A DNA stretch of 64,000 nucleotides from Escherichia phage vB_EcoM_UP17. Shown here in pieces: positions 6,039-57,814 of the stretch. Both the position numbers and the translations under genes were made by a program. The notes beneath the pieces are model-generated. The model was not told the origin of the DNA. It saw only the letters and a program-made list of their open reading frames with translations, and did not search any database. Where the stretch lies: sequence record LR746137. One strand, 5' to 3'. Position 1 is the first letter of the stretch. Each line of letters begins with the position of its first letter.

Positions 6039-8636
6039 CTAATGGCAACTCGCCCAGGAATTACCCACATCATATCCAGCAGTAAGCTGAACATTAAGAT
6101 TGTAAAATTCTCCAGCCTTAGTAACAGCTAAGGCAGCAAGTTCACCTGCCCGACTATAGGCTGTAAACCATCCACCTTTGGGAGATTCATGAATGTTAGC
6201 CCAAATTTGTCCCGTCTCTTTTTCCTTATTATGCTTCCATTCTTCAACTTTAGCAAGGCATTCTTTATCAATTTTCTTTTGTTCTTCAGGATCGTCTACT
6301 TTCTTCCAACCTAATGATTCAGGTGAAAACCATTTGAATTCTACAAGGTTACGAGAAACTTCAAGCTGGGCTTCATCGTGATATGCAATCATTTGTTGCA
6401 CGAAGTCTTTATTCTTCCAGTCATCTTTAAAGAAGTCAACACTTAGCCCTTCTTCTTCGATCATGTCATCATAAATAACCATTGCACGTTTAGCACAGAT
6501 AACCCCACCACTTTGGAACAGAGAGTTAAGAATCGCGTGAGCAGAACGAGTAGGAACCTTACGACCGTCAATACCCAAAACATATTGTTTACCAGTCTTA
6601 ACCCAAAAATCGTTTAAACGTTCTTTAAGACGCGCCAATGGGAATGCAGCTTCCCAGAAAGCATCGAACACCAATTGACCTGTAAACTTGTCGCTACCAA
6701 TTGTTTTAGCAACCTTGTCGGCTTGTGCACCATAGGTAATACCATACTTAACAGATTTAGCAGGACTACGTTCAAATTTACGTCCAATAGTTTCAGTGAT
6801 ACGTTTTGCCATCATTGTGTGAACATCGTTAGGTTTCTCTAACAACAGAGCGTTACAATATTCGTGTGGCTCCGGCTCGTACCGCCAACAGTAGTGTGAT
6901 TCAATTTTTGCTTCCAAAGAGTCGAAGTCGTAGCCGATCTGGAAGTATTTAGGAACCTCTACACCAAACAAGTTACGCATCTCCCACCCAAACAAAGATG
7001 TGACACGAGGAATATTAGCTACAGATCTATGCTTCATACGAGAGGTTGCAGCATCACATGTAGCGGCTGGGGTAGGAATACGCCCATCCGCCCTTACTGC
7101 GGCTAAGAAACCTTTATCGTATTCTTGATCTTCTTCATCTTCTTCCCAATCAGCACCGCCACCTAAAATAGAGTTCCTACGATGCTTATACGTTAAGTAT
7201 TCTACAATCTGTGTAGCATAAGGGAATTTCTCACCTAAAGCTTGCAGGTTAGGACAGATTTCTTTTTCCTGACCTTTGGTAAAACATGGGTTAGTCAATA
7301 CTTTAAGACCGCGACCTTTACCTTTTGCTATACGCTCTTGAATCTTCCTTTCCAGGGTTTCCGGTGTGCACTCCAGATGATCACAACGATCCTGACAAAA
7401 ATTAGAAGATAGGGTTTGCTCAACGTAAGCTCGAATACCTTTCTGAAGTTCTTCCTCGCTCTTTTTAATCTTGGTGCCAGATTTAAGAGTCAAGTCTTTA
7501 TCTTTATATTCAGACGGTACCCAACCTAATCCTACAAGCCAGTTTTTAATATGGGTTGTATCGTTCAATGTTGCAGGAATGTTAGGATCACATAGAGGCT
7601 CATCTGCTGCAACTGGCAGTTTCCACTCTTTCCCCAACATAACTAACCACCAATCGCCATCCCTCTCTTCCAAATGACCATCATGTTTCTTAGCAAAATT
7701 GATCATATGGTTAGTTGGCTCTAAGTTCTTTTTAATTTGCAACTTAGGTGGAATAAAAGCCTTAAGATAACCTTTTGTTGCTGGTTTAGGTGGCAAAATA
7801 GGCTCAACAAGTAAACGAAGACGCTCCATTTCTGCATCCAAAAAAGCAAGGTTCTCTTCTGCTTGTTTCATGTTAAAAGCAAACCCACGGTGTTCCTGGC
7901 GTGTAATAATGTCTGCTACACGTTGTTCAAGTTCAAATGGACCTTCCCATTTATCATAATCACCCCATTCTTCCATAAGGTAATTATATACGCTCGTATT
8001 GGCTTTGTTGTCATAGATACAGTAATAAAGCATATCCGCAGCAAAAGTCTTAAATCGATCTTCTTCTGGAATCTCTTTACGGAAATCTATTTTTACATCA
8101 CCACCTGCTTTTCGAGAAAGTGCTGCCAAGCTATGTCCTGATTTGCCCTCAATCTTTCGATCTGGGTTTAACACTTTACTCAAAATCAAGGAGTCAATAA
8201 GTTTTACCTTATTTTTGCCCCACGTATTATATTTAACACTGTAATCTAATCCATAAAACAGTTTTGTAGCCAACCAGTCGTAGTTGATACCGTTGTGAGC
8301 CACAGCCATTTCAACCAGATATTCAGGCTTGTCTTTAAAATAACCTTCATGATTAATAAAATCTGGGAAATCTTTTAGTTGAAAATGTGTGTAATCTTGC
8401 GCCACATACTCTTTAAGAACATATGTGTATTTACCATCTGACTCTTCATAAGGACGCCCATCAAAGATGTATTTAGGGCCATCGTGGAAAGCTACTATTT
8501 CTCCTGTTTCATGGTTCTCTAAGACAATACAGTGCATTTGAAATGTGTCTTTGAGACGATAAGGACTAGCTAAATAATCAATAGTGTCATTATTCAACAA
8601 TCCGTTTGCTTCAATATCCCATGTAAACTTACTCAC
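6039..8636 (-). CDS. DNA polymerase, family A, with 3'-5' exonuclease domain
   Basis: 865 aa, Exo I-like WDIEANGL, motif B-like KYGITYGAQ, motif C-like YHDEAQLEV. Confidence 0.85.
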   Translation of the reverse strand: MSKFTWDIEANGLLNNDTIDYLASPYRLKDTFQMHCIVLENHETGEIVAFHDGPKYIFDGRPYEESDGKYTYVLKEYVAQDYTHFQLKDFPDFINHEGYFKDKPEYLVEMAVAHNGINYDWLATKLFYGLDYSVKYNTWGKNKVKLIDSLILSKVLNPDRKIEGKSGHSLAALSRKAGGDVKIDFRKEIPEEDRFKTFAADMLYYCIYDNKANTSVYNYLMEEWGDYDKWEGPFELEQRVADIITRQEHRGFAFNMKQAEENLAFLDAEMERLRLLVEPILPPKPATKGYLKAFIPPKLQIKKNLEPTNHMINFAKKHDGHLEERDGDWWLVMLGKEWKLPVAADEPLCDPNIPATLNDTTHIKNWLVGLGWVPSEYKDKDLTLKSGTKIKKSEEELQKGIRAYVEQTLSSNFCQDRCDHLECTPETLERKIQERIAKGKGRGLKVLTNPCFTKGQEKEICPNLQALGEKFPYATQIVEYLTYKHRRNSILGGGADWEEDEEDQEYDKGFLAAVRADGRIPTPAATCDAATSRMKHRSVANIPRVTSLFGWEMRNLFGVEVPKYFQIGYDFDSLEAKIESHYCWRYEPEPHEYCNALLLEKPNDVHTMMAKRITETIGRKFERSPAKSVKYGITYGAQADKVAKTIGSDKFTGQLVFDAFWEAAFPLARLKERLNDFWVKTGKQYVLGIDGRKVPTRSAHAILNSLFQSGGVICAKRAMVIYDDMIEEEGLSVDFFKDDWKNKDFVQQMIAYHDEAQLEVSRNLVEFKWFSPESLGWKKVDDPEEQKKIDKECLAKVEEWKHNKEKETGQIWANIHESPKGGWFTAYSRAGELAALAVTKAGEFYNLNVQLTAGYDVGNSWASCH

Positions 8637-43426: not shown

Positions 43427-43606
43427 ATGGCACGTTTAGCAGATCATGAAATCTTTAAACCTATTCTGAACCACTATGATGAACTTAAAGCAGTGTTGGA
43501 TTGTTATAGAGAGGATGAAGAACGTTTGGAAGTCAATCTTAAGATAGTTCTGATGAAAGCTTTTCAAGACGGGCAAGCTAAAGTTTTAGAAGGCATGAAA
43601 AAATGA
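43427..43606 (+). CDS. Hypothetical small protein
   Basis: ATG 43427 after AAGGAG. Confidence 0.45.
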   Translation: MARLADHEIFKPILNHYDELKAVLDCYREDEERLEVNLKIVLMKAFQDGQAKVLEGMKK

Positions 43607-44145
43607 GAATAACTGATGAATATGTATTCTTCTTTTCACATAAAGATGTGTTTAGTAATTGGTATATTGCACCCTTTACAGAAACTGAACCAGGTTACAA
43701 TGAGACTTTCTGTTGTGTTGAGCAATATATGATGTGGCGTAAGGCTTTGCTGTTCAAGGATCATGCGATTGCAGCAGCTATCCTTGATCACTCAACTATA
43801 CGTGACAACGAGAGGAAACAAGCATACTACAAACGTATGGGTCGAGCGGTATCTGGTTTTAATAATGATATGTGGGAAGAGAACCGTGAGCGTATTGTTA
43901 TGCGAGGCTTATGCTTGAAATATGTACAGAATCCAGATTTGTATGCAGACTTACACCTTTACCAATACAAAACGTTTGTTGAAGCAAGCCCCTACGATAA
44001 GGTTTACGGAATTGGAATGGGGATGTATGAACCAGGGGTGCTAAACCCTGCTACCTGGAAAGGGCAGAATCTTTTAGGCAAATATCATAATAAACTGATC
44101 GAAATACTTTTCCCAGACAAAATACCGCAAAGACGATATTTGTGA
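43603..44145 (+). CDS. NADAR / YbiA-like domain protein
   Basis: VFFFSHKDVFSNWY...CCVEQYMMWRKALLF. Confidence 0.5.
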   Translation: MRITDEYVFFFSHKDVFSNWYIAPFTETEPGYNETFCCVEQYMMWRKALLFKDHAIAAAILDHSTIRDNERKQAYYKRMGRAVSGFNNDMWEENRERIVMRGLCLKYVQNPDLYADLHLYQYKTFVEASPYDKVYGIGMGMYEPGVLNPATWKGQNLLGKYHNKLIEILFPDKIPQRRYL

Positions 44146-44200
44146 TATTTTAACTTTTTTCATTTTTAGAACAAAGGTGTCACTTTGTAGCACAGAAATA

Positions 44201-44235
44201 AGGCTCCTACAGCACCGTAGAGAGCCTGTTATTTT
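44201..44235 (+). terminator. Rho-independent terminator after NADAR gene
   Basis: AGGCTCCTAC...GTAGAGAGCCT stem-loop then GTTATTTT. Confidence 0.45.
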
Positions 44236-44390
44236 GTCCTATACAAACCCTTGTCTTTTTCAGTTTGCATCACTAGGATTCGATCTGAGTGGGTTCCTGA
44301 AGGTCTGCCAATAAGATTAAAGGTTATCTCAAATTCCCACTACCTATTATCTCAAAAATCCCTCAAATTATTTAAACTTTTTAAGAATTT

Positions 44391-44565
44391 ACAAAAGTGA
44401 AAGTTGAAAACCAAAATTTAAAGTTTAGGAAAATTATCTTAAAATGTTAGATACAAAACAAAACTCAAAAGTCAAGGAAAATTTTAAAAATTTTGCGCGC
44501 CCACAGTATTTAAAGTTTTTTTGCTTTTACAAAAATGAAAGTACAAAAGCAAAATTTAAAGTTTA
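44391..44565. repeat. Two AT-rich ~37 bp direct repeats 138 bp apart
   Basis: ACAAAAGTGAAAGTTGAAAACCAAAATTTAAAGTTTA vs ACAAAAATGAAAGTACAAAAGCAAAATTTAAAGTTTA. Confidence 0.5.
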
Positions 44566-44613
44566 CAAAAATTTTTATGCAGGTGAAAATGAGAAGAGTT
44601 CTCATATGGAAAT

Positions 44614-44635
44614 GCAAATGATAATGATTCGCATT
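44614..44635. promoter_or_regulatory. Fur-box-like motif 1
   Basis: GCAAATGATAATGATTCGCAT, 14/19 to GATAATGATAATCATTATC. Confidence 0.35.
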
Positions 44636-44670
44636 TAAGTTTATAAATGAGATTGATTCTTATTTAATAA

Positions 44671-44693
44671 GGTAAATGATAATCATTCTCATT
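44671..44693. promoter_or_regulatory. Fur-box-like motif 2
   Basis: GGTAAATGATAATCATTCTCATT, 16/19 to Fur consensus; 14-mer identical to motif 3. Confidence 0.4.
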
Positions 44694-44923
44694 TAGAGAA
44701 TGACGCGCAGGGGCGGTGTTTGTCTCGCGCTCCCGTGTCCCCTCGCCATGTAATAAGAATAACAGATCCAGCCAGGAAAGCAAGCGATTATTTTATCTTT
44801 ACATTTCTTTACAAATATATAGCGCCCAGCCTACCGGCGATCAACCTTCCAACCAGTGCCCCCCTGGTATGTTAGCCCCGCCTTTACGCCGTGGGGTGGC
44901 GCTTCCTCTTCTGTATGTAAAAC

Positions 44924-44952
44924 AGTATAAGCCCGATCCCTGGGCTTGTCAA
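44924..44952 (-). promoter_or_regulatory. Near-consensus promoter abutting stop of 88-aa gene
   Basis: Minus strand TTGACA, 17 nt spacer, TATACT; no ORF with SD in the downstream ~250 nt. Confidence 0.4.
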
Positions 44953-44954
44953 GA

Positions 44955-45221
44955 TTATTTTTTGTTTTCTTGCCAGGATAGGACACCTAACCAAAAATAC
45001 ATATCGCCCCGCGCCCCTGGTGGTATCTTGCTTTCCCCGCCGCCACTGCAAGCCCATAGATAACCATTTGCGAACGTATCAAAATGATCTATCTCTTCCA
45101 CCTTATGATCGCCCAGGTTGAGAACGGTTTCAACCTTTAAGCCCGTTGCGCTTGCTACCTGGTGCACCGTGCCGCCTTGCCAGCCCAATGAGTGCATAAG
45201 GTGTAATGTAGTATTTGTCAT
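44955..45221 (-). CDS. Hypothetical protein in GC-rich island
   Basis: 88 aa non-repetitive ORF, own promoter, opposite strand to surrounding genes. Confidence 0.35.
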   Translation of the reverse strand: MTNTTLHLMHSLGWQGGTVHQVASATGLKVETVLNLGDHKVEEIDHFDTFANGYLWACSGGGESKIPPGARGDMYFWLGVLSWQENKK

Positions 45222-45268
45222 GGTATCGCCCTTTCTTTGATGTGCGCCCTGGTTGGCGCGGTAGAAAG

Positions 45269-45297
45269 ATGATAGCCCTTTCTTTTATATATAGCAA
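45269..45297 (-). promoter_or_regulatory. Promoter for 88-aa island gene
   Basis: Minus strand TTGCTA, 17 nt spacer, TATCAT. Confidence 0.4.
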
Positions 45298-45330
45298 GTA
45301 AAAAGAAAATAAAAAAGATTGAAAAAGTGA

Positions 45331-45389
45331 TTGACGTTCGCCAGGTGGCGGCATAATATTTACCACGTAGGGCGGCAATGGTGCCGCTC
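45331..45389 (+). promoter_or_regulatory. Promoter-hairpin unit
   Basis: TTGACG-17-TAATAT, then 10 nt, then hairpin GGGCGGCA-ATGG-TGCCGCTC (45370-45389). Confidence 0.55.
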
Positions 45390-45408
45390 ATTATTTGGAG
45401 TTAAAATC

Positions 45409-45606
45409 ATGGCAACATTGCACATTGTGGCGAAAGCTGGACAAATAAACGTGGTAGTAAACGGTTTTACTGAGTTCAGTCATCCCCAGGATGATCATGA
45501 AACGGTTTTATCTTTCATTGATTCACTGTTAGAAATGGGAGTAATTACAGAAGACCAGCACGCTACAAAATGCAAACGCGTTAATCAGATTGCAGGAATA
45601 GAATAA
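45409..45606 (+). CDS. Early small protein
   Basis: ATG 45409 after GGAG; track start 45331 is TTG inside -35. Confidence 0.5.
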   Translation: MATLHIVAKAGQINVVVNGFTEFSHPQDDHETVLSFIDSLLEMGVITEDQHATKCKRVNQIAGIE

Positions 45607-45612
45607 AAAGTA

Positions 45613-45675
45613 TTGACAACAACCAACAACCTGATAAGATGTATCACATAGGGCGGCGGAATGGTCCAGCCGCTC
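45613..45675 (+). promoter_or_regulatory. Promoter-hairpin unit
   Basis: TTGACA-16-TAAGAT, hairpin 45651-45675 with AATGGT loop. Confidence 0.5.
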
Positions 45676-45698
45676 ACAACAGAAGAGAGATTATAATC

Positions 45699-45971
45699 AT
45701 GGCATCATATAGCGCAACAATGATCGTAGCTGGCACCACTGGTAAACCTATGAGCGGTGGCGGATCTTTCGCAAATATCAACATCGACGGGCGTTTATCC
45801 CTGGACGCAGCGATCACCGTGGCGCGGGAAACATTTAAGAAAGAATGTAAATTCAATAAACAAGATTATCTCGGTTTTGCTATTGAAAAAACCGCGCGCT
45901 TTGTTGATTATAAAAGCCCGAAAATGGTTGATACTACACTAAAAGCGCAAGATGTAGCATTTTTGCTTTAA
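45699..45971 (+). CDS. Early small protein
   Basis: ATG 45699 downstream of hairpin. Confidence 0.5.
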   Translation: MASYSATMIVAGTTGKPMSGGGSFANINIDGRLSLDAAITVARETFKKECKFNKQDYLGFAIEKTARFVDYKSPKMVDTTLKAQDVAFLL

Positions 45972-45974
45972 GGT

Positions 45975-46030
45975 TTGACATTAGCGAATAATTTACTAAT
46001 ATGTTGCATAAGGCGGGAATAGTTCCCGCT
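45975..46030 (+). promoter_or_regulatory. Promoter-hairpin unit
   Basis: TTGACA-16-TAATAT, hairpin GCGGGAA-TAG-TTCCCGC. Confidence 0.5.
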
Positions 46031-46047
46031 ATTTGTAAGGTGGTAGA

Positions 46048-56215: not shown

Positions 56216-56230
56216 TTGACAACAAAACAA

Positions 56231-56257
56231 GGGGCGCACCAAGCGCCCTTTCTTTTT
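56231..56257 (+). terminator. Rho-independent terminator closing the early array
   Basis: GGGGCGC-ACCAA-GCGCCC then TTTCTTTTT. Confidence 0.6.
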
Positions 56258-57028
56258 GCCCGAACAATGTTGATAGCTTTCGCCTATGAAAAACCGACAC
56301 AGAACAAAATTGAATAAATCGCGGTATCGAGCTAATCAACCATTAAACGAATAACCATACCTCCCAGGGTAACAGGCTGTTAGAGAGCCATTTAAAGCGG
56401 TTAAAATCGATCAACAACCAACAACAAACCATCAAAAACACCCTTTTACCTCCTTTCTAGTGCAATGATAACCATTATCATCTATCCATGTTTATCTATG
56501 CAATATAAGTGCATAACTATAATGTTGATAATAGTTCGCAACAACTAACTAACCAACAACCTAAAACAATAAGCAAACTAATCATAATCAAAGGAATAAT
56601 AGCAAGATGATTGATAACGACAAACAATCAAACCATGATGAATACTAAGCAAGATAACGATAACACGACAAAACAACCAACTAACGAACAATAACAAACG
56701 AAACCATTAAAATAACAACTATTAGCAAAATAGTGCCTGAATGAAATCATTACAAAACGAATCATTCACAGAGTCATCATTAGCACGCTATGCCGGACAC
56801 ATAGCGAGCTAATAATAAGCCAACTACACCCCAACAATCATAACCATCGGTGATGGTTATTTCTTGTTACTGCGTAGCTTGCAATAATTGCAAGCGTAAT
56901 TACGCTTACACTTATTGCGCTGGCTTATTATTAGCATTATATGTAATTACTGAGATCATAACATTAGCGCAATAACAATAATCATTGTGGTAATTACGTA
57001 AGGAAACAATTAGCATGGCAATAATTAT

Positions 57029-57176
57029 GGGGGCAATGGGAGGATGATTATCATCATTCCGATACATTGCACACTATGCACATAATGAGATAAAAAGCAA
57101 TACTTTTGGGGGCGAAATGTTACCGCCACAGGCGGGAATGTTGAGCACTAAGAAAAGAGCAAATATTACGGGGGCG
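57029..57176. repeat. Three iteron-like GGGGGC(G/A)A direct repeats
   Basis: GGGGGCA at 57029, GGGGGCG at 57108 and 57170, each in TNNGGGGGCNAAT context. Confidence 0.45.
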
Positions 57177-57275
57177 AATACTATCGCTACGCGATATGTT
57201 AAGCACCTTCTCTTAAACGTAAATAAAATCAGAAAATTCTTGATTTATTTTGGCTTTTATGTTAATAAACGTTTA

Positions 57276-57296
57276 AATAATAATCATTCTCATATA
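57276..57296. promoter_or_regulatory. Fur-box-like motif 3
   Basis: AATAATAATCATTCTCATATA; ATAATCATTCTCAT identical to motif 2. Confidence 0.35.
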
Positions 57297-57453
57297 AATA
57301 ATAGTCTGCTTGTCATGAGCGGGATCAGTTGACAGTGTTCCGTCATATGATGAAGTTGCCAACCCCTTGATAAATAAGTGTTTGTGTGATTTATAATCAA
57401 GTGGCCCACCTTGTCGCTACGTTGGCATGAAGCTTGCATAAGTCATTGAATAC

Positions 57454-57478
57454 GAATGATAATTATTCTCATTCGCAT
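57454..57478. promoter_or_regulatory. Fur-box-like motif 4
   Basis: GAATGATAATTATTCTCATTCGCAT. Confidence 0.35.
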
Positions 57479-57589
57479 GATATTTGGGAATTGTCGCTGC
57501 GTGGACCTGACGGCCCGAAAATTCGCGTTAAGCACTTCTTACGTATACGCCATGATTATTGCCATATCATATTGATTCTATTAGATATT

Positions 57590-57787
57590 CTTGCCATGAT
57601 TGCCATGAAACAGGGTGTGTCGAAATAATCTCTCCCCGTAGATATTTTGGGTTACTTTTTATACAAGAGTAGGGTGTCAAAAATAATCGGTATATATGGG
57701 ATAATTGATAGGAATCCCCTATGATAATTCGATTGTAATTCCCTAAGATTGATCGTATGATGTTGGTGATTGATGATTGCCATGAAA
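57590..57787. repeat. TTGCCATGA-type short repeats
   Basis: CTTGCCATG/ATTGCCATGAAA tandem at 57590-57610, GATTGCCATGAAA again at 57775-57787. Confidence 0.4.
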
Positions 57788-57814
57788 GATGGCTAACGAT
57801 GAGAGGGGATTATC

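Follow-up and report, generated by a model that had tools for sequence, protein, structure and literature searches.

A conserved candidate small RNA gene with a proposed pseudoknot and an invariant tail in a gene-poor gap of the Escherichia phage vB_EcoM_UP17 genome

The genome of Escherichia phage vB_EcoM_UP17 (sequence record LR746137) is that of a Phapecoctavirus (Stephanstirmvirinae; phAPEC8/phi92-like; ~150 kb). We analyzed a stretch of 64,000 nucleotides (nt) of this genome, referred to below as the window, in which a 1.26-kb gap separates two rightward early genes. This gap is the subject of the present study, and in particular a conserved, structured non-coding element within it that we call RNA1. 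Escherichia phage ukendt is 99.5% identical to the window over 44100-45700, a region that has high-identity matches in 146 phage records. In public records the gap has nothing annotated in ukendt and, in others, an open reading frame (ORF) of 88 codons alone or scattered short ORFs. The features at the center of the analysis, all leftward, are these:

44955-45221, minus strand: gene for an 88-residue protein (equivalent to Phi92_gp224; phrog_19316)
44924..44952, minus strand: promoter P1, TTGACA-17-TATACT (11 of 12 consensus positions)
44829..44921, minus strand: RNA1, a conserved structured non-coding element (covariance model R1, 97.8 bits)
44831..44848, minus strand: 18-nt tail of RNA1, AAGGUUGAUCGCCGGUAG, apparently unpaired and the proposed interaction site

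A preliminary description of this DNA, made from the sequence alone, had singled out an island of about 600 bp that is richer in guanine and cytosine (GC) than its surroundings, and this is borne out: the GC content of 44700-45300 is 0.494, compared with a mean of 0.394 (standard deviation 0.024; 600-bp windows) for the 64 kb, in which no other 300- or 600-bp window matches it. In the adjoining DNA (44300-44700), GC content is down to 0.24-0.25. Within the island, the stretch downstream of the 88-codon ORF has a GC content of 0.52 and RNA1 one of 0.59, versus 0.48 for the ORF itself; the higher value of the RNA-bearing stretch means that the structured RNA elements account for no less of the GC richness of the island than the gene does. 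The GC skew of the plus strand over the island is about -0.06 to -0.26, i.e., a leftward transcript would be G-rich.

The near-consensus minus-strand promoter that the preliminary description placed directly behind the 88-codon ORF lies at exactly those coordinates (44952..44924), and it outscores every other sigma-70 match in the 3 kb scanned. Neither the ORF list nor inspection of the sequence revealed an ORF led by a ribosome-binding site downstream of it, as had also been stated there. Judged by its sequence, P1 would qualify as a sigma-70 promoter, with hexamers 17 bp apart (16-18 bp being expected) and a fixed position in relatives. Of 57 distinct upstream regions, 56 have a sigma-70 match of at least 9 of 12 positions at a conserved distance from the RNA1 core (21-27 nt from the reference point; 69-70 nt in three insertion-bearing variants). 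The sequence of the P1 spacer varies between lineages while the position of the promoter stays.

The DNA behind P1 is far better conserved than the neighboring gene. When the sequence downstream of the stop codon was compared among relatives whose 88-residue proteins are 41-77% identical, a non-coding block was found nearly unchanged behind the promoter, and the identity of the RNA1 core to the window in these phages is 90-98%. RNA1 is ~90 nt long, with a predicted start near 44917. Sensitive BLAST searches with 44690-44960 as the query identified the element in 272 GenBank phage records. Carriers in the Stephanstirmvirinae include Phapecoctavirus, Justusliebigvirus, and others, and those in the Vequintavirinae include Seunavirus (PVP-SE1), Certrevirus (PBES02, KaOmega), Mydovirus, and Henunavirus; the rV5-like phage PhiTE also carries it (locus L018/L030). 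More distant copies are found in Aeromonas phages of the genus Plateaulakevirus, for example 2L372D. Hosts of RNA1-bearing phages thus comprise E. coli, Salmonella, Klebsiella, Cronobacter, Erwinia, Pectobacterium, and Aeromonas. Pattern scans revealed RNA1 on additional contigs of viral and metagenomic origin, most of them phage-like and 115-153 kb long. Among bacterial and archaeal genomes, one for each of 185,579 species, there were only three hits, which we read as two chance matches and one phage contig identical to RNA1 of the window. This near-absence from cellular genomes indicates that RNA1 is phage specific.

The R1 covariance model, built from the nested pairs of the RNA1 model, detected 54 hits in related loci and one convincing copy in the window, where the only other hit (6152-6234) scored 11.7 bits (E 0.21). 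No Rfam 15 family matched anywhere in the window at gathering thresholds. When the threshold was relaxed to E ≤ 10 over 44100-45450, the single hit overlapping RNA1 or the downstream element RNA2 (described below) was Bp1_684, with 12.8 bits against a gathering threshold of 44 (E 9.5); six other hits, equally weak, fell elsewhere in the gap. ARAGORN found no tRNA or tmRNA in the window or in related loci, and a tRNA-Ile annotated under one BLAST hit proved to be a neighboring gene on the other strand. Full-text literature searches returned no description of RNA1, Fur boxes, or an origin in these phages.

The proposed RNA1 runs, from 5' to 3', through a purine-rich leader, an H-type pseudoknot, a CUA linker, hairpin P3, and the 18-nt tail. 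Its paired elements are as follows:

44901-44898 with 44890-44887, minus strand: pseudoknot stem S1, CGCC:GGCG (covariation model)
44896-44893 with 44879-44876, minus strand: pseudoknot stem S2, CCCC:GGGG (covariation model)
44886-44880, minus strand: A-rich third loop of the pseudoknot, UAAAGGC
44872-44849, minus strand: hairpin P3, with a length-variable G-tract loop at 44863-44857

In the structure alignment of 41 distinct sequences, 83% of cells are paired and 10 of the 16 pairs change on both sides. The covariation score of this model is 0.190, compared with 0.069 ± 0.009 for shuffled alignments, none of which (0 of 500) reached it; controls in which the partners were slid by 1-3 columns scored 0.018-0.042. 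A model-based alignment of 51 distinct sequences agrees, bearing in mind that such an alignment leans toward the structure of its model. Stem S2 occurs as CCCC:GGGG, CCAA:UUGG, CCAG:CUGG, and CCAU:AUGG; at its position 31:46, 31 sequences have C-G and 9 have A-U, and four pair types are found at 32:45. Stem S1 is 94-97.5% paired and nearly invariant, with GGAC:GUCU in Aeromonas phages. Pairs in P3 vary as well, with A-U (29 sequences) or G-C (12 sequences) at 54:76 and four pair types at 59:72. The G-U pairs are consistent with the minus strand. Compensatory base changes therefore support a conserved secondary structure, and on these sequence grounds RNA1 would belong among structured non-coding RNAs. 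The candidate small RNA of the preliminary description is strongly supported on comparative grounds: promoter and following sequence stay together as one conserved block in three phage taxa, and the proposed pairs covary.

The same hairpin bears on coding potential. The length of the G-tract in the P3 loop differs by 1-4 nt among phages that are more than 97% identical, which breaks any reading frame and excludes coding on both strands. On this basis we rejected a plus-strand ORF of 115 codons (GTG-initiated, 44716-45063), which overlaps RNA1, RNA2, and the opposite-strand 88-codon gene and whose frame is shifted by the G-tract indels; it is possibly among the "hypothetical protein" calls made over this stretch in some public records. 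The apical loops seen in these otherwise >97% identical phages are AGGCA, GGCG, GGGCA, GGGGCA, GGGGGCA, and GGGGGGCA. The differences in G-tract length suggest slippage-prone, tolerated variation.

The most conserved part of RNA1 is its tail (consensus AAGGUnrAUCGCCGGkAG), with 15-18 of 18 positions identical to the window in every group compared. In Aeromonas phage 2L372D all 18 positions are identical, and the rest of the core is 68% identical. Two intramolecular partners for the tail were considered and rejected. Pairing with the pseudoknot loop (CGGCG:CGCCG) fails since the loop reads CGUCU in Aeromonas phages and the tail is unchanged; pairing with GGCGGGG, as in the minimum-energy fold, fails since Erwinia-type sequences lack GGCG, again with an unchanged tail. 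With both candidates gone, the tail is most simply read as an exposed interaction site.

The Aeromonas version shows what the element looks like in a different setting. In 2L372D, a promoter-like TTGCTT-17-TATAAT is followed by RNA1, an AU-rich stretch, and a GC hairpin with a T-run. This Plateaulakevirus unit lies between opposite-strand ORFs, and RNA2, palindromic boxes, repeats, and the AT-rich tract, all of which accompany RNA1 in the window, are lacking. As far as sequence can tell, this is the anatomy of a self-standing small-RNA gene.

A separate observation concerns the edge of the tail. On a Mydovirus-like contig (IMG/VR contig 2974574029; L033, 6300-7133, minus strand), an insertion lies precisely behind the RNA1 tail. 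This cassette is made up of an ORF of 197 codons (MKKVYGVGVND...), whose product has no Pfam match, and a second, diverged copy of RNA1 with its own TTGACA/CATAAT promoter; the resident tail is mutated (CGCC to CGCT and TAG to TAC). Homing endonucleases commonly target conserved genes, and by analogy the cassette resembles a free-standing homing endonuclease gene that may have settled beside a conserved target.

Upstream of P1 lies the gene for the 88-residue protein, with these accompanying features:

45269..45297, minus strand: promoter of the gene, TTGCTA-17-TATCAT (9 of 12 positions; preceded by an AT-rich tract)
45244..45259, minus strand: hairpin GCGCC-AACCAG-GGCGC in the 5' untranslated region, between the promoter and the ribosome-binding site
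44929..44947, minus strand: GC hairpin AAGCCCAGGGATCGGGCTT, then ATACTGTTTT, terminator-like for this gene (terminator scan)

The preliminary description had reported this minus-strand ORF with its own promoter and suggested a homology search of its product. The protein matches phrog_19316 over its full length (E 2e-59) and has 21 cluster representatives in a large protein collection, with identity down to ~41%. By tblastn, the gene is found at the same position in 151 phage records from several genera, including phi92 (gp224), phAPEC8, and phages of Klebsiella, Serratia, and Pectobacterium. It is opposite to its immediate neighbors and followed by a gene-poor stretch in all five annotated relatives inspected (phi92, UPEC06, iGC_PHA_EC001, W70, and Klebsiella 05F01). 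Substitutions relative to close relatives fall mostly in third codon positions (6 of 7 and 9 of 14). From its sequence, we regard the ORF as a real, conserved gene. Its regulatory surroundings are kept as well: relatives have promoter-like hexamers at the corresponding site ahead of the homologous gene, the 5' hairpin is near-identical in phi92, UPEC06, and W70, and the terminator-like hairpin, which sits within the P1 spacer, has a counterpart GC hairpin in the P1 spacer of most relatives. The gene is missing from some RNA1-bearing lineages, namely PVP-SE1-like phages, Mydovirus, and Aeromonas phages.

The function of the protein is harder to approach. A nearly invariant N-terminal motif, LMxxLGWQGGTVHQVAxxTGL, is also found at the start of other, longer phage proteins, and there is only a hint of a helix-turn-helix at the N-terminus. 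The C-terminal half is mosaic; in iGC_PHA_EC001, for example, the RNA region is 99.3% identical and the protein 71.6%. The AlphaFold2 model has five helices and a predicted local distance difference test (pLDDT) score of 93.4. Foldseek searches with this model gave nothing below E 2 in the PDB and uncharacterized homologs only in BFVD. Sequence searches against Pfam and the PDB yielded no significant match, and Pfam and PHROG searches gave no match to ToxN.

Downstream of RNA1, a second set of elements continues leftward into AT-rich DNA (features given without a strand have no orientation):

44796..44815, minus strand: direct repeat TTTGTAAAGAAATGTAAAGA, between RNA1 and the second promoter
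44814..44787, minus strand: promoter-like TTGTAA-16-AATAAT, overlapping the direct repeat in this genus
44756..44783, minus strand: P2, TTGCTT-16-TATTCT, the positional equivalent of the second conserved promoter
44696..44751, minus strand: RNA2, a second conserved GC-rich element, ACAUGGCGAGGGGACACGGGAGCGCGAGACAAACACCGCCCCUGCGCGUCAUUCUC, kept in most enterobacterial members
44682..44704, minus strand: terminator-like AU-rich hairpin, then UAUCAUUU (terminator scan; 9 pairs, 3 of them G-C)
44588..44693: four palindromes of 19 bp that resemble Fur boxes, AATGAGAATnATTmTCATT, spaced exactly 29 bp apart
44364..44573: AT-rich region, GC content 0.24-0.25, with two 72-nt direct repeats

In other genera, P2 reads TTGCAA-17-TATATT or TTGATC-17-TATTAT (9 of 12 positions), and a site with at least 9 of 12 matches precedes RNA2 in 39 of 46 sequences. 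The closing stem of RNA2 is 90% paired, and its changes are mainly exchanges between G-C and G-U. The 3' end of RNA2, together with the first palindromic box, would give rise to the AU-rich hairpin. The palindromes, which start at 44588, 44617, 44646, and 44675, lie downstream of P2 and clear of its -35 and -10 hexamers. They are kept downstream of RNA2 in phages of E. coli, Salmonella, Klebsiella, Cronobacter, Erwinia, and Pectobacterium. The box at 44672-44690 has the top score of the window against the E. coli Fur consensus (16 of 19 positions); the other three score 13-14 of 19, a level (at least 13 of 19) reached by 95 sites in the window and 35 in shuffled sequence. Both the Fur-like boxes and the AT-rich repeats had been noted in the preliminary description, and four palindromes and two 72-nt repeats correspond to them.

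Several side observations belong to this part of the locus. The two 72-nt repeats are 82% identical, 138 bp apart, and contain recurring AAACTTTAAAT and TTTTGTAAA motifs. In a related lineage (L058/L065), a different palindrome, TGATAAC-n5-GTATCA, occupies the place of the boxes. In PhiTE (L018, 3600-4200), at least eight copies of CGAGACC(C) occur downstream of the boxes in ~550 bp of non-coding DNA; these repeats are iteron-like and lie where the window has its AT-rich repeats. A 28-nt string of the minus strand, TTGTAAAGAAATGTAAAGATAAAATAAT (44787-44814), is 96% identical (E 6e-3) in several T5-like phages, where it is located in the left terminal repeat/first-step-transfer region, e.g., in Salmonella phage Spc35 (L096, 601-628). 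In Spc35 the sequence after the string is CAAACGCCACC..., with a faint resemblance to the start of RNA1. This similarity may be chance.

Both flanking genes are transcribed rightward:

43603-44145, plus strand: NADAR-domain gene (Pfam E 3e-35)
45409-45606, plus strand: gene for a 65-residue protein, the right border of the gap

A hairpin at ~44201-44237 is annotated in the record of phage ASO2A as the terminator of the upstream plus-strand operon. In our reading of its sequence, it is T-flanked on the minus strand as well and would stop leftward transcripts before the NADAR gene. On the other side of the gap, the rightward early genes (45331-45400, 45613-45690, 45975-46040, and further right) each stand behind the same cassette of TTGAC(A/G)-16/17-TAnnAT, a GGGCGGC...GCCGCTC stem-loop, and a ribosome-binding site. 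Repeated promoter-stem-loop modules have been described from the early regions of T4-type phages. Another stretch poor in ORFs, ~1.6 kb long and with none above 71 codons, lies at 56216-57814. It carries three more Fur-like boxes (56464, 57276, and 57455), AACAA-rich low-complexity DNA at 56400-56720, an inverted repeat at ~56880-56910, and "gggggcgaa.." units at 57109 and 57172, and it could be another regulatory, non-coding-RNA, or origin region.

On balance, we think it probable, if well short of certain, that the island combines a gene for a small protein with at least one gene for a structured non-coding RNA, which is transcribed from a promoter and works by way of its invariant tail. Such an island would consist of leftward-transcribed, autonomous units placed inside a rightward early region. 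The first unit would be the 88-residue protein gene with its own promoter and terminator-like hairpin. In the second, the RNA gene, host sigma-70 RNA polymerase would start at P1 and produce RNA1, whose pseudoknot (two 4-bp stems and an A-rich third loop), together with the variable hairpin, would present the 18-nt tail in single-stranded form. RNA1 would presumably act in trans, the tail serving as the contact surface for a partner, RNA or protein, that may be conserved across gamma-proteobacterial hosts or across these phages. The weaker P2 and RNA2 would follow, and transcripts would probably end at the AU-rich hairpin that includes the first box.

Several observations weigh against this reading. 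Some concern the fold: the RNA1 sequence of the window, taken alone, folds no more stably than shuffled versions (z = 0.10), and the minimum-energy fold obtained for it is not that of the covariation model; the covariation of S1 comes from one diverged lineage, and a few sequences (e.g., L078) retain just two or three S2 pairs. Others concern the transcript. No clear intrinsic terminator was found between RNA1 and P2 in the window: a clear RNA1 terminator is seen only in the Aeromonas version, and the window has the weak AU-rich hairpin at 44682-44704. P2 is itself weak in the window (7 of 12 positions), and the internal stems of RNA2 are unsupported (self-versus-cross complementarity of 3.68 vs. 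3.30 contiguous pairs). A partner for the tail was not found in the window, nor a target in E. coli genomes, where a 33-nt query against 28 Gb is blind to short matches. A DNA-level site, instead of an RNA function, could explain why the tail is so extremely conserved. Finally, we infer the transcription of RNA1, its start site, its 3' end, and its mode of action from sequence.

A bolder version of the RNA-gene interpretation can be proposed, which we put forward tentatively and consider doubtful as a whole. RNA1 may represent a new class of phage small RNA whose tail engages a component shared by Enterobacterales and Aeromonas, such as the translation, RNA-decay, or defense machinery; together with RNA2 and the Fur-like operators, it may form an early control hub tying phage development, and possibly replication, to a host state such as iron status.

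The strongest competing explanation, which we nevertheless regard as unlikely, is that the region is an origin of replication or a replication control region, where transcripts from P1 and P2 form an R-loop or primer or open the DNA, and the folds serve the hybrids. The succession of elements fits this explanation well: promoters and a G-rich transcript, four palindromes at 29-bp spacing, and then DNA of very low GC content with long direct repeats, replaced in the equivalent stretch of PhiTE by the iteron-like CGAGACC(C) repeats. Seunavirus and Mydovirus have a third promoter-like site beyond the boxes, directed into AT-rich non-coding DNA. For rV5-like phages, the rV5 genome paper marks a "non-coding" box that it leaves uninterpreted, and its skew analysis, confounded by transcription direction, did not define an origin (PMC3606486). 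On the other hand, the region contains no DnaA boxes, and it shares its type of palindromic box with the ORF-poor stretch at 56.2-57.8 kb. To our knowledge, an invariant single-stranded tail is not a feature of known origin primers. Above all, RNA1 in Aeromonas phages is a compact, terminated unit without the boxes, the repeats, or the AT-rich tract, and it is chiefly for this reason that we rank a trans-acting RNA above the origin model.

It is more improbable still that the conserved sequence matters as DNA, i.e., as a site for a regulator, a nuclease or homing endonuclease, or recombination, with promoters that are incidental to the early region. Such a site would account for an 18-bp tail that is nearly invariant without a detectable pairing partner, for the mobile-looking cassette of L033 inserted at the edge of the tail next to a mutated copy, and for the protein-binding-type palindromes nearby. 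However, the compensatory changes seen in three helices, and G-U pairs that are compatible with just one of the strands, point to selection on a folded single strand. A promoter also stays at a fixed upstream distance in 56 of 57 lineages, and the Aeromonas version has a terminator. The sequence could be a DNA site and an RNA gene at once.

Least probable is a reading that builds on two suggestions of the preliminary description, a horizontally acquired moron and a transcript antisense to the rightward genes. The 88-residue protein gene would be the moron, and the promoter behind it would yield no more than a chance transcript or an antisense RNA modulating the rightward genes. The gene is indeed a self-contained opposite-strand unit with its own promoter and hairpin, a mosaic C-terminal half, and a GC content at third codon positions of 0.49 (0.33-0.44 in its neighbors), but its wide syntenic spread at one locus in 151 records and several genera marks it as a long-standing member of the locus and argues against recent import, the RNA module is commoner (272 records), more conserved, and present without the gene in PVP-SE1-like phages, Mydovirus, and Aeromonas phages, and leftward transcripts would enter only non-coding DNA before the hairpin at ~44201-44237, with no coding sequence to be antisense to.

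Returning to the interpretation we favor, an RNA gene at this locus would be of broad interest. Few large lytic coliphages are isolated as often as those of the rV5, phi92, and phAPEC8 groups, and their use in therapy has been widely proposed. Public records leave this gap blank or fill it with spurious ORFs. A conserved and, by prediction, strongly promoted RNA in ~270 phages suggests an overlooked common function, and its 18-nt tail has remained invariant while surrounding proteins diverged to ~40% identity. The locus offers a new RNA family for databases and phage annotation and a candidate RNA-based phage-host interaction. It is also a plausible site of an origin or early control region, with a possible link of phage development to host Fur.

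How does RNA1 compare with known systems? Small RNAs encoded by large lytic phages have precedents: T4 encodes stable small RNAs. In PhiTE, pseudo-ToxI is a phage small non-coding RNA that acts as a lineage-specific decoy (Blower et al. 2012, PMC3475682). Like pseudo-ToxI, RNA1 would be a short non-coding unit in a large lytic phage, predicted to be pseudoknotted and to be read by host RNA polymerase. Unlike ToxI, it is single-copy, lacks the tandem repeats of ~36 nt that mark type III antitoxins, has no toxin link (there is no ToxN-type neighbor), and is conserved across three phage taxa. Pseudo-ToxI is not located at the RNA1 locus of PhiTE, where a search for ToxI gave no match at up to 12 mismatches.

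The proposed fold is of a familiar kind. The aptamers of preQ1-I, SAM-II, and guanidine-III riboswitches and viral frameshift pseudoknots are small H-type pseudoknots with an A-rich third loop. The RNA1 model shares with them the order S1a-S2a-S1b-loop-S2b, 4-bp stems, connecting loops of 1-2 nt, and an A-rich third loop of 6-7 nt. RNA1 differs from them in its extra hairpin and its invariant 18-nt tail, and no relevant Rfam match was found up to E 10. Unlike both riboswitches and frameshift elements, it has no regulated ORF or ribosome-binding site downstream and no apparent ligand or frameshift context.

Transcription-activated origins are known from the T7 primary origin, T4 oriF and oriG, and ColE1 RNA II. 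As at these origins, strong promoters in the window point into AT-rich, repeat-bearing non-coding DNA and would yield a G-rich, structured transcript; unlike at these origins, RNA1 occurs in Aeromonas phages without an AT-rich or iteron context.

The palindromes, in turn, recall Fur boxes (consensus GATAATGATAATCATTATC; 7-1-7 motif TGATAATnATTATCA). The hosts of the box-bearing phages share the Fur consensus. The box at 44672-44690 matches this consensus at the 16 of 19 positions given above, and TGAGAATgATTATCA fits the 7-1-7 motif at 14 of 15 positions. Unlike Fur boxes, the phage consensus TGAGAAT-n-ATTCTCA is a distinct palindrome, and the sites do not lie over the P2 hexamers. As for RNA1 itself, which has no relevant Rfam match, its sequence and covariation place it as a new RNA family within the phage-encoded small structured RNAs.

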